From NCBI GenBank assembly GCA_945897475.1, contig CAMDFL010000003.1:1-62568 (forward strand): a stretch of DNA of 62,568 nt, in the 5' to 3' direction. Both the position numbers and the translations under genes were made by a program. The notes under the pieces are model-generated. The model made no database searches and was not told the origin of the DNA. It was given only the letters and a program-made list of their open reading frames with translations. Origin of the DNA: Bordetella parapertussis. GTDB taxonomy: Bacteria; Pseudomonadota; Gammaproteobacteria; Burkholderiales; SG8-39. Positions 1 to 5,874 of the stretch are shown piece by piece. Positions within the stretch are counted from its first letter, which is position 1, and each line of letters opens with the position of its first letter.

Positions 1-177
1 TAGAAGGTCGAGTCCGCGCAGGCGTAGCGACGGCGCGACGGTTGCGGGGTTTATCGCAAGCGGCGTGACGGAGCGGTCAAAGTTACGGCGCCGCCAGCAC
101 CGAAATATGTCCGGTCTCGCTGGTGTCGGCGTCGCATTCAAATCGGCGACCGTGATAAACGCCAGGGAGCATCCGCG

Positions 178-501
178 TCACGCAGCAACCGTAATGCCAG
201 CCGCATGCTCGCGACGAGCCGGTTTTACAGTTATCTCGACCTGCTGATCGAACGACACCAGCGCCTGCATCAGGCGTTCAAGCGAAATATTCTGGAGTTT
301 GTAGCGACCAACCTGCGATACCTTGGGCTGTGTCATGCCGGTGATCGCGGCGGCCTCGGTCTGACTGAGCCCCCTGCTCCGGATGAGTTCGTTGAGTTTG
401 ACGGCAAGGATGGCTTTCGCGGACAGTTCTTCCGCGTCGTCGAACCCAAGGTCGATCAGCACATTGTCAGTGCCCTTGTGAGTGTCTTTGCGTCGCATCA
501 T
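178..501 (-). CDS. higA: XRE-family helix-turn-helix antitoxin, HigA-like (107 aa)
   Basis: Uses the internal start MMRRKD of ORF 178..720. HTH-like stretch LSQTEAAAITGMTQPKVSQV. Its ATG shares one base with the TAA of the upstream toxin ORF (TAATG, 499-503). Toxin-first order is typical of higBA. Confidence 0.8.
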   Translation of the reverse strand: MMRRKDTHKGTDNVLIDLGFDDAEELSAKAILAVKLNELIRSRGLSQTEAAAITGMTQPKVSQVGRYKLQNISLERLMQALVSFDQQVEITVKPARREHAAGITVAA

Positions 502-860
502 TACCTCCCGCTCAACCCATGTCGGGCAAGCACAGCCTTCAACCGCTTCTCGATCAATTGCACGTCCGGCTGCGGCGTGCTGATGCCGGACTTCGACTTC
601 TTCTGAAACGCATGCAGCACATGGATCGCATCTCCCACGCGCACCGTGTAGACCGCGCGAAAGGTGTCGCCCCGGTGATCTTCCACCAACTCGTAGACGC
701 CGGAACCAAGACCCTTCCACGGCTTCGACGAATCGGGCATGCGACCCACCTGGACCACAAAGAGCGCAACACCTATGTCCTTCTGGACCGGAATGGGGAA
801 TTCCTTGAAATCCTTCTTCGAGGAACCTTCCCAGAACAGCGGTCTGCGCATCTTAGTCAT
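501..860 (-). CDS. higB: RelE/ParE-superfamily toxin, HigB / phage Gp49-like (119 aa)
   Basis: ORF 501..860. Small basic protein with the pattern FKEFP..VQKDIG..L..VQ.G..P...KP..GLG.GVYEL..D..GDTFRAVY typical of Gp49/HigB-like toxins. Translationally coupled to the downstream XRE antitoxin. Confidence 0.8.
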   Translation of the reverse strand: MTKMRRPLFWEGSSKKDFKEFPIPVQKDIGVALFVVQVGRMPDSSKPWKGLGSGVYELVEDHRGDTFRAVYTVRVGDAIHVLHAFQKKSKSGISTPQPDVQLIEKRLKAVLARHGLSGR

Positions 861-862
861 GC

Positions 863-890
863 ATTATACCCGTTCGTATATAGATTGCAA
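863..890 (-). promoter_or_regulatory. sigma70-like promoter upstream of higB
   Basis: On the minus strand: TTGCAA (885-890), 16-bp spacer, TATAAT (863-868), immediately upstream of the higB ATG (858-860). Confidence 0.35.
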
Positions 891-957
891 GCATCGCCGC
901 CGCCGAGCCGCGTCGATAACCATACAACCAGAGCGCCCCCTCATTCCCAGACCACTC

Positions 958-985
958 TTGGTCCTGCGCGCCAAGCCCTTACAAT
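958..985 (+). promoter_or_regulatory. orphaned sigma70-like promoter (candidate ancestral mutS promoter)
   Basis: TTGGTC (958-963), 16-bp spacer, TACAAT (980-985), 8 nt before the ATG at 994 of the mutS-like stub. Confidence 0.4.
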
Positions 986-993
986 AGCGTGCG

Positions 994-1110
994 ATGAAAT
1001 ATCCCAGTCAGTCCGCCGAAATTTCTGCGACCCACACCCCGATGATGCATGGGCGTAAAGTCCTCGCCGCCATTGGCTTTTCAGGCAATCGCTGCCGCGA
1101 CCTACACTGA
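994..1110 (+). pseudogene. mutS 5'-end stub (38-codon ORF; the first 18 codons resemble a MutS N-terminus)
   Basis: The ATG at 994 encodes MKYPSQSAEISATHTPMM, then diverges (HGRKVLAAIGFSGNRCRDLH*). THTPMM matches the conserved MutS motif AHTPMMQQY at 3334-3360 in the same codon phase. 19 nt (1031-1049) match 3335-3353 at 18/19 positions. Confidence 0.55.
1031..1049. repeat. left 19-bp direct repeat (cccacaCcccgatgatgca) flanking the AbiE insertion
   Basis: 18/19 identical to 3335-3353. Both copies are in the same reading phase over HTPMM. Confidence 0.6.
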
Positions 1111-1361
1111 AACCTATACCGGACTGAAAGATTTCGGGCTCGCGTCATCCGTGTCGCTCTGTCGTTGGCGCGTTTGGTTTGGTGCCACGCGCCCGCCGTC
1201 TCCGTTCTACTGCGTCGAGCCCGTTTAGCTCGACGAGCGGCCGGTCACGCTTGCGGCAAACTAGCTGGAGCATTCTGTCCCTATTTGGCGCTATAGCAGC
1301 TCCCTGCGCTAAATGGCCTCCGGTACAAGTTGTAGATAGATTTATTGGAACAGGTTGTTAT

Positions 1362-1453
1362 ATCGTAGTATGGCTACGACAAATACTTCTTTTCAAAATT
1401 TCTTGACTTCAAAATTATTAGAAAAAAGTATATAATCGTAGTATGACTACGAC
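1362..1453 (+). promoter_or_regulatory. abiE promoter region with two copies of a 19-bp element, each holding a 6+6 inverted repeat (candidate AbiEi operators)
   Basis: atcgtagtatgGctacgac (1362-1380) and atcgtagtatgActacgac (1435-1453). Each contains TCGTAG-N5-CTACGA. TATAAT at 1431-1436 lies 6 nt before the abiEi ATG (1443). Copy 2 overlaps the -10 element and the start codon. Confidence 0.5.
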
Positions 1454-2180
1454 TTCTACAAGCAAGCTAAATACCCTCTACACCCGTCTGCCCATGGGTT
1501 CCCCAATCACCTCGGCACAACTCGCCGCGCTCGGGGTTTCGGCCGATCTCGCGGTCCACTATGCCCGCTCAGGTTGGCTCAAGCGACTGGGACGAGGGGT
1601 CTATTGCCGACCCGGTGAAGCCCTGTCGCTGCACCCGAGCCTCGTCGTGCTCCAGCAGCAAATCCCCGGACTTCATGTCGGAGGCAAGACGGCGCTGGAA
1701 TGGTACGGCGTGCGCCAATACGTCTCGCAGCAGGCTGCATTGCATTTATACGGCTGGGCGGCCGCGCGCCTGCCTGATTGGTTCGGTCAGCATTTTCCGG
1801 GCGAGTATCACCGCAAGCGGCTTTTCACCGAGGAGCCAGCGCAGATGCCCGGTGTGGGTCCTTTCGAAAACCGCGCCAACGCGCCGCTGGTCTCGACACC
1901 GGAGCGGGCGCTGCTCGAATTGCTGGACGAGGTCGGCGTCCGGCAACCACTGCAGGAAGCGCGTGAAATCGCCGAAGGAACATACAGCCTGCGTGCCGAG
2001 GTGCTGATGGATCTTCTCAAGCGCTGCACGAGCGTCAAGACGGTCCGGCTCTGCCTGCGCCTCGGACGCGAGCTCTCCCTGCCGTGGGTCGGCAAGCTCG
2101 ATGAGGCCGTGCTGCCCAAAGGCAGCGCCTTGCCGTGGATATCGAAGTCCAAGGATGGGTTACTGGTGCTCAAACCATGA
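1443..2180 (+). CDS. abiEi: AbiEi-family antitoxin / transcriptional regulator (type IV TA, abortive infection)
   Basis: ORF 1443..2180. N-terminal winged-helix pattern ITSAQLAALGVSADLAVHYARSGWLKRLGRGVY is typical of AbiEi_4-like antitoxins. The stop overlaps the downstream start (ATGA at 2177-2180). Confidence 0.85.
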   Translation: MTTTSTSKLNTLYTRLPMGSPITSAQLAALGVSADLAVHYARSGWLKRLGRGVYCRPGEALSLHPSLVVLQQQIPGLHVGGKTALEWYGVRQYVSQQAALHLYGWAAARLPDWFGQHFPGEYHRKRLFTEEPAQMPGVGPFENRANAPLVSTPERALLELLDEVGVRQPLQEAREIAEGTYSLRAEVLMDLLKRCTSVKTVRLCLRLGRELSLPWVGKLDEAVLPKGSALPWISKSKDGLLVLKP

Positions 2181-3091
2181 ATCAGATCTATCTCGATACC
2201 GCGCGCCTGATGCTACAGGTAGCGCCACTCGTATTCGCCGACAACGTGTTTGCCCTGAAGGGCGGCACCGCGATCAATCTTTTCGTGCGTGACATGCCGC
2301 GCCTGTCCGTGGACCTTGATCTCGTGTTTGTCGATCACCGCCTCGGCCGGGACGAAGCGCTTGCCAGGATCAACGAAGCGATCCGGAATAGTGTGGATCG
2401 TCTCAAGAAGCGCGGGTTCCAAACCCACGCGGCGACCGTGGCCGACGCCGGCGAAACAAAACTCTTCGTGCGCCGCGACAAGCTCGAAGTGAAGGTGGAA
2501 GTGAATTTCGTGCTTCGCGGAACCGTGCACCCGATTCGCTCGACATCGCTCACTCCGAAGGCAAAAGAGACGCTGCTCGCCGACCTGGAACTGCCCGTCG
2601 TGTCGCTCCCAGACCTCTACGGCGGAAAGCTCGTCGCCGCCCTGGATCGTCAACACCCGCGTGACTTGTTCGACGTGATGGAGCTTTTTCTCCACGGAGG
2701 AATCACGCCGGAAATCAGGCGCAGCTTTGTGGTCTATCTCGCATCTCACAACCGGCCGATTCATGAGGTGCTTTTCCCGAACCTTCGGGACATCTCCGGT
2801 GAATACGAAGGCACGTTCAAGGGCATGACGACGGAGCCGGTGGAGTTGAAGGCCCTCGTCTCCGCGCGCGAGCGCATGATCGCTGAACTGAAAGCGGGCC
2901 TCGACGCCGCCGAGCGGGAGTTCCTGTTATCGCTCGCCCGCAATGAGCCCAATTGGGATTTGCTTGGCATCGAACACCTTGAGCAACTTCCCGGCATCCG
3001 GTGGAAACTCGCAAATCTCGGGCGCCTGGCGAACAGCAACCCGAAGAAACTCAAGGAGCAGGCACGGATGCTGGAGCACCTGCTCAGTTAG
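2177..3091 (+). CDS. abiEii: AbiEii/AbiGii-family nucleotidyltransferase toxin (DUF1814)
   Basis: Uses the internal start MNQIYLD of ORF 2135..3091. NTase motifs LKGGTAINLF and SVDLDLVF, followed by YGGKLVAALDRQHPRDLFDV. Confidence 0.9.
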   Translation: MNQIYLDTARLMLQVAPLVFADNVFALKGGTAINLFVRDMPRLSVDLDLVFVDHRLGRDEALARINEAIRNSVDRLKKRGFQTHAATVADAGETKLFVRRDKLEVKVEVNFVLRGTVHPIRSTSLTPKAKETLLADLELPVVSLPDLYGGKLVAALDRQHPRDLFDVMELFLHGGITPEIRRSFVVYLASHNRPIHEVLFPNLRDISGEYEGTFKGMTTEPVELKALVSARERMIAELKAGLDAAEREFLLSLARNEPNWDLLGIEHLEQLPGIRWKLANLGRLANSNPKKLKEQARMLEHLLS

Positions 3092-3291
3092 ACCGTCCAA
3101 TTCCAGTAACGGAGATTGCGAAAAACGGACAATCGCTTTCCCATTGATACCGGAATTTTCAGTCTATTTACAACCGCTATCTGTTGTACTGACTGCTTGA
3201 AGGGCCGATTGTCATTCCAATAGAGGAATAAATTCGAGATGACCCGCTTCGTGTTTCTGCGAATCCCCATCCGCTCCCGTAAAATGCTCCC

Positions 3292-5874
3292 GTGAACGCA
3301 CCGCAATCCCCTCCCGCCGCAAAGAATACCGATGCCCACACGCCGATGATGCAGCAGTACCTTCGCTTGAAGGCACAGCATCCGGACATTCTGCTTTTCT
3401 ATCGCATGGGCGACTTCTATGAGCTGTTTCATGCCGATGCCGAAAAAGCGGCCAAACTTCTCGACATCACGCTGACCACGCGCGGGGCTTCGGCAGGCAC
3501 GCCGATCAAGATGGCGGGGGTGCCCTATCACGCGGCGGAACAGTATCTGGCAAAGCTGGTACGGCTGGGCGAATCGGTGGCGATCTGCGAGCAGATCGGC
3601 GATCCCACTACCTCCAAGGGGCTAGTTGAGCGAGCGGTGATGCGCATTGTCACCCCCGGCACATTGACGGACGCGGCGCTGCTCGATGACAAAGCCGACA
3701 ACATTCTTCTTGCTCTCAGCGTGGAGGGGTCGCTTGCGGGCCTTGCCTGGCTGAATCTGGCCAGTGGGGAGATGCGGGTGATGGAAATCGCGCTGCAGGG
3801 GCTGGCCTCGGAGCTGCGGCGAATTTCTCCTGCGGAAGTCCTGCTTGCGGATAGCAAGCGCCTTCCCGATGAACTGGCGGGATTTCATGTCAGCCATGTT
3901 GGCGAGTGGCTGTTCGATATCACCGCGGGACGCTCAGCCTTGCTCGCCCAATTGCGCGCGGCGAGTCTTGCCGGCTTCGGCTGCGAGGATCTGGGGCCCG
4001 CTATCGGCGCGTGCGGCGCGCTTCTGGATTACGCCCGGAAAACCCAGGGGCAGTCCCTCGCTCATGTGAATGCCGTTATCGCCGAGCGGCCCGGTGAATA
4101 CCTGCGAATGGACCCGGCCACGCGGCGCAATCTGGAGATCACGGAAACTCTGCGTGGCGAACCCTCACCCACGCTGCATTCGTTGCTGGATGTCTGCGCA
4201 TCTGGCATGGGCAGCCGCCTGCTGCGCCATTGGCTGCACCACCCGCTTCGCGACCGCGCGGTGCTTGGCGCACGCCACGCTGCAATCGCGGTCTTGGTCT
4301 CGCAGGATGCCGCTCGAAAAATGATCGAGACGCAACTTCGCCATGTCGCCGATGTCGAGCGTATCGCCGCGCGCCTGGCATTGAAAAGCGCTAGGCCGCG
4401 CGATTTATCATCGCTGAGGGATAGTCTGTCTGTGCTGCCGGAGCTGACTACTCTGATTCCACAATCAGAATGCGATTTGCTTGATTCACTCCGAGCGGGG
4501 CTGGCCTGCCCTATCGATTGTCTTGAACTTCTGCGCCGTTCTATTCAGGAGGAACCCTCAGTCGTCTTGCGCGAAGGCGGCGTGATTGCCGCGGGATACA
4601 GCGCCGCGCTGGACGAATTGCGAGGGCTCCAGACCAATGCCGGCGCCTATCTTGTCGATCTCGAAGCACGCGAACGCGCACGCACCGGCATCTCCAACCT
4701 CAAGGTCGAGTACAACCGCGTGCACGGCTACTACATAGAGATCACCAACTCTAACGCCACCCGCGTACCCGACGACTATCGCCGCCGCCAGACGCTCAAA
4801 AATGCCGAGCGCTATATCACCCCTGAGCTGAAAACCTTCGAGGACAAAGCGCTTTCCGCGCAGGAGCGATCCTTGGCGCTTGAGAAAACCTTGTACGAAG
4901 AGTTGCTCGCGCTTCTTCTGCCGCATCTGGAGACCTTGCAGCGCATTGCGCGTTCGCTCGCGCAACTGGATGTGCTCGCAGCGTTCGCGCAAACGGCGTT
5001 GCTGCGTAATTATTGCCGGCCCGTTTTCACCGATGAGCCCGGCCTTGCCATCGAGGCGGGTCGGCATCCCGTGGTCGAAGGCCTGGTTGAGTCTTTCATC
5101 GCCAATGACACGCAACTGTCCCCCACGCGCCGCATGCTGCTCATCACCGGGCCCAATATGGGCGGCAAATCGACTTACATGAGGCAGGTGGCGCTGATCG
5201 CCTTGATGGCGCATGCCGGATCATTCGTTCCTGCGAAAGCCGCGCGCATCGGCCCAGTGGACCAGATCTTCACCCGTATCGGCGCCGCCGATGACCTTGC
5301 CGGCGGTCGCTCGACTTTCATGGTGGAGATGACCGAATCGGCCAACATCCTGCACAACGCCACCGAGAAAAGTCTGGTGTTGATGGACGAAGTGGGGCGC
5401 GGCACCTCTACCTTTGACGGACTGGCGCTTGCCTGGGCTATCGCGCGCCATCTTGTCGAGAAGAATCGCGCGGGGTCTCTGTTCGCCACTCATTACTTCG
5501 AACTCACGCGCTTGGCGCTGGATTTCAAGGAAGTGGCCAACGTGCATCTGGATGCGATCGAGCACAAGGACCGCATTGTGTTTTTGCATCACGTGGAAGA
5601 GGGGCCCGCCAGCCAAAGCTACGGCTTACAGGTTGCGGCTTTGGCGGGAGTGCCGGCAGGCGTGACGCGCGCCGCGCGCCGATATCTGCAGCAACTGGAG
5701 GCTTCGCAGCTCAACACCGGCGGTCAGAGCGATTTATTTGCCGGGCCCGCGAAGCCCGAGGAGCCCGAACCCGCAACAGACGCCTTGCGTGAGGCCATGC
5801 AACAGGTGAATCCCGACGAACTATCGCCCAGGGAAGCACTCGATCTGCTCTACAAACTCAAGCGCCTGCCCTGA
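3292..5874 (+). CDS. mutS: DNA mismatch repair protein MutS
   Basis: 860-aa [36 protein letters not shown] mismatch-binding N-terminus and Walker [18 protein letters not shown] start at 3292; the ATG pair at 3346 is an alternative start. Confidence 0.97.
3335..3353. repeat. right 19-bp direct repeat (cccacaGgccgatgatgca) inside mutS codons 15-21
   Basis: Partner of 1031-1049. Confidence 0.6.

Follow-up and report, generated by a model that had tools for sequence, protein, structure and literature searches.

A decayed, integrase-less abiE island remnant probably occupies the mutS attachment site of a Burkholderiales genome

Introduction

The mismatch-repair gene mutS appears to begin twice in the DNA considered here, a stretch of 62,568 nt (the window; contig CAMDFL010000003.1 of assembly GCA_945897475.1, filed as Bordetella parapertussis and placed by GTDB in the Burkholderiales). 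A stub that reads like a mutS start is followed by the abortive-infection genes abiEi and abiEii and only then by the working gene, which raises the question of how a phage-defence module came to lie within the 5' end of mutS, and what kind of element brought it there. According to the original prediction, which was made from the sequence alone, a defence cassette had landed in mutS, leaving the former start behind and supplying a new one, and the arrangement fitted no recognised class of mobile element.

We found that the insertion is borne out by comparison with related contigs and that arrangements of this kind have been described before. For the islands GI8c of Burkholderia pseudomallei MSHR305 and Bt-GI4 of B. 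thailandensis, 'mutS-specific recombination' was reported by Tuanyok et al. (2008, PMC2612704). Chu et al. (mBio 2017, PMC5296598) described a 27-kb element of Vibrio splendidus 12B01 in the HTPMMQQ motif of mutS. With this element in place, the host start lies orphaned upstream and mutS has a new start and promoter from the element, which excises as a circle; related integrases were found in mutS of hundreds of Beta- and Gammaproteobacteria, and excision was demonstrated in Escherichia coli 536, Pseudomonas putida F1 and B. multivorans CF2. Integration into the HTPMMQQ-encoding sequence with replacement of promoter and N-terminus is therefore not new, and the arrangement that had seemed unplaceable belongs to this family, its attachment (att) core having been reported in Burkholderia in 2008. 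We consider it probable that the region is a decayed, integrase-less remnant of a genomic island, resembling a cis-mobilizable element (CIME) and lying in a tandem array at the mutS att site, which it would have entered by site-specific integration through a tyrosine recombinase.

Results

The starting point was a 19-nt sequence (CCCACACNCCGATGATGCA) that occurs twice around the abiE genes, with 18/19 positions identical: the left copy (1031-1049) reads CCCACACCCCGATGATGCA and the right copy (3335-3353) reads CCCACACGCCGATGATGCA, the mismatch being C at 1038 against G at 3342. As had been predicted, both copies encode HTPMM in the same frame, the left one after 13 codons counted from ATG 994 and the right one after 15 codons counted from GTG 3292 (the original prediction had counted 14 codons before the histidine). 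A third match was not found in the 62.5-kb window with up to two or up to four mismatches, and 100 shuffles gave no further match. Since, by our estimate, some 18/19 pair is expected about 0.8 times in 62 kb by chance, the repeat alone is weak evidence, and its weight comes from the position of its copies.

This position was assessed in related contigs. We regarded as the same species those contigs whose MutS falls in the same 90% cluster, with 98.6-99.3% nucleotide identity to the window. Three of these (L081 at 98.6%, L156 at 99.3%, and L092) begin to match the window at 3337 and are unrelated upstream, and similarity to the window also ends at 3337 in the more distant hosts L089, L100 and L082. 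On the left side, contig L146 has the attL junction in full, extending 67 nt into the insert, at 76-79% identity (window 1050-1116 alone at about 79%). The junctions at 1049/1050 and 3353/3354 both follow ATGATGCA, inside the HTPMMQQ-encoding DNA of mutS. The same base is used in E. coli 536, where a stub, MSTIENFDAHTPMMH with its stop, lies about 14.8 kb upstream of mutS and the junction again follows ATGATGCA. In addition, the 15-bp direct repeat published by Tuanyok et al. (PMC2612704), ACGCCGATGATGCAG, equals window 3340-3354; in attL two of its positions are changed, with C in place of G at 1038 and T in place of the last G at 1050. Because of the mismatch at 1038/3342, strand exchange would have occurred within CCGATGATGCA (1039-1049). 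Altogether, the comparative alignments confirmed the two repeat copies as the boundaries of a real insertion, just where the 19-nt match had been said to mark them.

Joining 994-1049 to 3354-5874, which reconstructs the empty site, yields an uninterrupted, in-frame MutS of 858 aa. The working gene read from GTG 3292 encodes an 860-aa MutS with all five Pfam domains, and this GTG is the presumable start, with the database gene call for this contig beginning at ATG 3346 (P0248). A promoter scan upstream of GTG 3292 detected no consensus promoter, and there is no Shine-Dalgarno sequence. The right-end segment that carries the new start (3092-3334) was present only in the same-strain contigs L085, L091 and L155. 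Since the exchanged residues precede Pfam MutS domain I, very different N-terminal tails can be tolerated; tails of the MADIAQ and DSNLNDPGFS types are found repeatedly, on MutS proteins whose mutual identity is only 73-100%. The alignments thus show the replacement N-terminus as apparently delivered by the inserted DNA. By extension, mutS would now be transcribed from element DNA with a delivered promoter, and its expression may have been affected.

At the other end, the left open reading frame (ORF; 994-1110, 38 aa) runs from ATG 994 through MKYPSQSAEISAT-HTPMM and continues in unrelated sequence to a stop at 1110. Contig L090 has an intact mutS, and the working 5' end of this gene shows 83% identity to window 978-1049, which spans the -10 element, the ATG and 18 codons; we propose that the stub was the working mutS start before the abiE-bearing insertion. 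Outside the core, the identity to L090 is 79% over 53 nt, and the adjacent DNA of mutS domain I is 80.5% identical. The idea that the stub might be recognised as element-borne by being more conserved than mutS was rejected on these figures. The promoter that had been assigned to the stub (TTGGTC-16-TACAAT) matches only 8/12 consensus positions and falls below the threshold of the consensus scan; its TACAAT is conserved in both L090 and L146. When proteins were searched with the reconstructed N-terminus, the matches were short MutS fragments only, and all of them lacked the MKYPSQSAEISAT tail. When contigs were scanned with MutS residues 1-400, the relatives among the matches listed all had at most 70% identity, and universal peptides such as HTPMMQQY dominated.

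Pfam, PADLOC and integrase searches agreed with the prediction that the 2.3 kb between the repeats hold abiEi (1443-2180) and abiEii (2177-3091) as the only genes, and no recombinase. No integrase or integrase remnant was detected in the cassette or anywhere in the window, and a sensitive tblastn search with five integrases against 861-1442, 3080-3340 and the whole window gave noise only. The search also gave a weak co-located match on the minus strand, at about 1122-1325, which we did not regard as significant (E = 0.18-0.36). In contrast, an integrase is present beside mutS in the relatives L089, L092, L099, L156, L049, L038 and L015. The MutS proteins of L081 and L092 begin MADIAQ-HTPMM, and 84 bp upstream lies the gene of a 405-aa tyrosine integrase (Arm-DNA-bind_3 plus Phage_integrase), while that of L156 begins MKTDADTVANPQ-HTPMM and the gene upstream of it, a different one, encodes an Arm-DNA-bind_3 domain. 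The closest phage integrases show an identity of only about 32% and are thus uninformative.

The abiE module recurs in more than 50 metagenome loci at 77-93% identity, with homology starting at 1263-1340 and ending at 3063-3085. The complete unit from att to att was not found elsewhere; only the module at 1263-3085 recurs. Three of these loci reach mutS. In contig L099, mutS is preceded by type I restriction-modification (R-M) genes, abiE (90% identical) and an intact 413-aa integrase, in this order, and L151 has the same layout in truncated form. In L100, hsdR is followed by abiE (92%), higBA (94% identical to that of the window), a 25-aa integrase remnant, MADIAQ and then mutS. The progression from L099 (intact integrase) through L100 (remnant) to the window (none) supports what would be a decay series. 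The cassette therefore probably did not arrive as an integrase-less unit, as the original prediction had it, because its att-to-att unit is absent elsewhere and abiE in the relatives stands beside an integrase or its remnant. An independent integrase-less insert in mutS was found in L005, another Burkholderiales metagenome-assembled genome (6149-10040), with a 21-nt perfect repeat. There the stub MEKPIEHTPMMQQ adjoins gcvH and is followed by a 3.8-kb insert and then mutS, the cargo being a two-component system (histidine kinase and response regulator), cytochrome b561, a dihaem cytochrome c and DUF1924.

With respect to the origin of the stub, the DNA to its left had to be considered. Contigs that extend the window leftward (L084-L086) hold only toxin-antitoxin (TA) modules there, namely higBA, parDE, a second, inverted abiE and hipA. 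The higBA block is 94% identical to cargo at the right end of the island in L100, where mutS shares only 71% identity with that of the window, and in both L090 and L146 the same stub-type start stands downstream of homologous integrase remnants that are cut at about residue 350. Because the left flank consists entirely of TA cargo, with this match to L100 and these integrase remnants, the MKYPSQ-type stub may have been delivered by an earlier element. We lean, with some uncertainty, towards this interpretation over the predicted one, in which the stub is the host's own start.

The features of the region are collected in Table 1. The abiE promoter/operator region (1263-1442) is AT-rich, with 37% GC, and a consensus scan placed a promoter-like site for abiE at 1408-1436. 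Palindromes at 1363-1381 and 1434-1452 overlap this promoter-like site, and these repeats are predicted to serve autoregulation; autoregulation by AbiEi via inverted repeats has been reported (PMC7319586). The palindrome within each 39-nt repeat reads TCGTAGT..ACTACGA. An upstream ORF of 21 codons (1370-1435, MATTNTSFQ...) begins in the first 39-nt copy and resembles the start of abiEi, MTTTSTSK. The start of abiEii overlaps the stop of abiEi by 4 bp (ATGA). An Rfam search of 1-4000 found no RNA family, and AbiEi and AbiEii had no sequence relatives in PDB at E <= 0.01. Exact database look-ups of the window's AbiEii and of MutS from the GTG start returned no match, because the database gene calls differ.

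Table 1. Coordinates of features at the left end of the window
Feature	Position	Strand	Remarks
higA-like antitoxin (HTH_37)	178..504	-	Pfam; cargo left of the stub; 93-94% identical to island cargo beside mutS in L100 and L094
higB-like toxin (Gp49/DUF891)	501..860	-	Pfam; clear promoter-like site for higBA at 890-863, minus strand (promoter scan); exact protein on 5 ENA contigs
Putative promoter of the orphaned start, TTGGTC-16-TACAAT	958..985	+	Weak match; TACAAT conserved in L090 and L146
Orphaned mutS start MKYPSQSAEISATHTPMM	994..1049	+	83% identity to intact mutS 5' end in L090
attL copy of att core	1031..1049	+	Junction after ATGATGCA, as in E. coli 536
Non-coding left-end segment of insert, GC 61%	1050..1262		No Pfam, Rfam or integrase match
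abiE module (promoter/operator, abiEi, abiEii)	1263..3085	+	Sole part recurring elsewhere
Two 39-nt direct repeats (1342-1380, 1415-1453), a palindrome in each; probable AbiEi operator	1342..1453	+	
abiEi, antitoxin/regulator	1443..2180	+	Pfam AbiEi_3_N, AbiEi_3; PADLOC AbiEi E = 1.3e-65
abiEii, nucleotidyltransferase toxin	2177..3091	+	Pfam AbiEii; PADLOC E = 4e-114; KGGTA and DLDL motifs
AT-rich right-end segment with replacement mutS 5' region (GTG 3292), GC 49%	3092..3334	+	
mutS, five MutS domains	3292..5874	+	Pfam; domain I from residue 17
attR copy of att core	3335..3353	+	Homology to L081, L156, L089 and L100 begins at 3337

Several further observations concern the neighbouring DNA. 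Contig L084 (2400-6390; left of the window, reversed) carries parDE, the second abiE pair and hipA, a TA-rich island with its left boundary beyond the available contigs; this second pair is inverted relative to the first and 67-84% identical to it in parts. A 118-nt segment downstream of higA (window 6-123) is 94-98% identical to L089 997-1114 and L094 2492-2609 and 78% identical to L106, and it resembles a recurrent junction or 3' flank between TA modules in the mutS islands of different hosts. The integrase C-terminal remnants upstream of the stub-type mutS start lie at 214-2054 in L146 and at 9768-10056 in L090. In L146 an rve-family transposase gene is inserted between the integrase remnant and the stub-type start, and the core of the stub there has acquired 3 additional nt. 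In E. coli 536, the gene beside mutS (L153 23976-24725) encodes a 249-aa DUF4102 protein with Arm-DNA-bind_3 and Phage_int_M and no catalytic domain, and excision was nevertheless detected by Chu et al. (PMC5296598).

Discussion

Our data are consistent with the following course of events. The att site is the HTPMM(QQ)-encoding sequence, and elements of this family have an attP that mimics the 5' end of mutS. Integration would have split mutS such that the former start was left as attL (994-1049), and the start codons and upstream region of the element became fused to the rest of mutS at attR (3292-3353). The abiE-carrying element would later have lost its integrase and most of its other cargo. 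An earlier element, with hipA, the second abiE, parDE and higBA as its cargo to the left, probably delivered the stub, so that the locus would have grown by tandem accretion. That a deletion removed the integrase, and that the two insertions came in this order, is what we infer. AbiE and the other TA modules may have kept the remnant in place by making its loss costly; in Streptococcus suis, AbiE reportedly stabilises an integrative and conjugative element (ICE; PMC11062541).

A number of points weigh against this explanation. No remnant of an integrase was detected in or beside the cassette, so that its loss is deduced from relatives and not seen here, and the ends of the insert (1050-1262 and 3092-3334) have no counterpart in any integrase-bearing element that we retrieved. 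An empty-site allele, with the MKYPSQ... start on an intact mutS, was not found in the species among the 13 members of the 90% MutS cluster. Neither of the two mutS upstream regions, at the stub and at GTG 3292, has a consensus promoter. Finally, the near-equal identities to L090 of the stub and of the neighbouring mutS DNA do not discriminate a host-derived from an element-derived start.

The last of these points leads to the strongest competitor, namely a single insertion into the host's native mutS start, with stub and promoter ancestral and the TA genes to the left having arrived by unrelated routes. Vertical descent is compatible with the 79% and 80.5% identities, the stubs in the cases of Chu et al. 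(PMC5296598) are host-derived, and the stub of L005 abuts the core gene gcvH. We nevertheless regard this as possible but clearly the less likely course, given that the left flank is mobile, its higBA following the island of L100 and not the relatedness of the two mutS genes, and that L090 and L146 have their stub-type starts downstream of integrase remnants cut at the same residue. Alternatively, the att-flanked abiE cassette might still be mobile, excised and re-inserted in trans by the integrases of other mutS elements that circulate alongside it. The two att cores are both intact, and excision would preserve the reading frame. Integrase-bearing elements are also present at this very site within the species and within the sample series, and mobilisation of CIMEs by accretion has been documented for other elements (PMC5704250). 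However, only the inner abiE module recurs elsewhere, no circular or empty-site form was observed, and the attL junction, as it recurs in L146, is only 76% identical and hence seems to be old and fixed; ongoing mobility is therefore rather doubtful in our view.

Two other possibilities carry far less weight. If mutS varied by homologous recombination of imported flanking DNA, the 19-nt repeat would be incidental. The flanks of mutS are prone to recombination in other bacteria, and the island cargo is highly mosaic. Yet such recombination would leave no duplicated in-frame stub, the break-points fall on the same few bases in four independent comparisons, integrases lie directly beside the site, and excision at this site has been demonstrated experimentally (Chu et al., PMC5296598), all of which makes this account very improbable. 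That the repeat is a mere chance match, with abiE simply lying upstream of mutS, could appeal to the expected number of 18/19 pairs calculated above, but the core found no second match in the shuffles, and the idea is refuted by a match that follows an ATG in frame, shows homology to a genuine mutS start and coincides with a published att site. We therefore return to the decayed island remnant as the best explanation.

With this explanation in mind, the region can be compared to known systems. Integration into the 5' end of a housekeeping gene is also a property of the SXT/R391 elements, which enter prfC and supply a new promoter and N-terminal codons; they differ from the window's element in target gene and integrase family and are large conjugative elements. 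The elements of Chu et al. share with the window the HTPMMQQ target, the junction base (in E. coli 536), the orphaned mutS start upstream, a new start and upstream region derived from the element, direct repeats within coding sequence, and hosts among the Betaproteobacteria. They were found via their integrase and range from 4 kb to >150 kb, whereas the element of the window is 2.3 kb long and has none; in addition, excision in the window would be in frame (in silico), while that in strain 12B01 leaves a 2-bp scar. GI8c and Bt-GI4 likewise have the 15-bp direct repeat and a short mutS fragment duplicated at the other end of the island, but GI8c is a putative prophage with recombination functions of its own and the window's element holds abiE only. 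CIMEs, as reviewed in PMC5704250, have lost their integration genes and kept attL and attR, and occur in tandem with decayed cargo at one att site. The window's element likewise retains attL and attR and lacks integration and transfer genes, although CIMEs were defined for ICE and integrative and mobilizable element (IME) families that mostly target the 3' ends of genes and the site here, known from its sequence, is the 5' end of mutS. Tandem accretion of CIMEs and IMEs is also documented for other elements (PMC5704250). The cargo itself resembles the type IV TA system AbiE (Dy et al. 2014, PMC3985639), in which abiEi and abiEii are bicistronic and overlapping, the toxin is a DUF1814 nucleotidyltransferase and the promoter contains repeats; both systems combine AbiEi, a winged helix-turn-helix (wHTH) antitoxin, with AbiEii in one operon, the window's being known at the level of sequence only.

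What this locus adds to the known family is modest, namely the integrase-less state, the defence and TA cargo, the probable tandem accretion and at least three alternative elements within one species. The family includes integrase-less, att-flanked remnants down to 2.3 kb, which searches that start from the integrase, such as the 2017 survey, cannot find. Its cargo is often concerned with anti-phage defence and TA functions (AbiE, type I R-M, HigBA, ParDE and HipA). Within one species-level population, the mutS site is occupied by at least three alternative elements with differing N-terminal tails, including MKTDADTVANPQ, and each of these alternating elements gives mutS a different upstream region and tail. 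The integrase of L081 and L092 that goes with the MADIAQ tail was also seen (98.8-100% aa identity) in L089, whose MutS is only 75% identical. Should these upstream regions cause mutS to be expressed differently, mutation rates would shift as a by-product of defence-island turnover. A more far-reaching and decidedly speculative view, to which we give little credence at present, is that the 5' end of mutS is an accretion platform, where integrase-less, att-flanked defence and TA cassettes are shuffled in trans by competing integrase-bearing elements and the promoter and tail of mutS are swapped each time. Phage-defence turnover would then be coupled to mismatch-repair expression and mutation rate.

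A practical warning also follows from this locus, in that the start codons of MutS are inconsistently annotated and metagenome contigs break at the mutS site. Gene callers start MutS at MMQQY in many relatives, including the window's own database entry. Breaks in metagenome contigs, as in L082, L083, L091 and L154, tend to lie inside abiE, at the mutS core or shortly before it, and L083 begins exactly at ATGATG.

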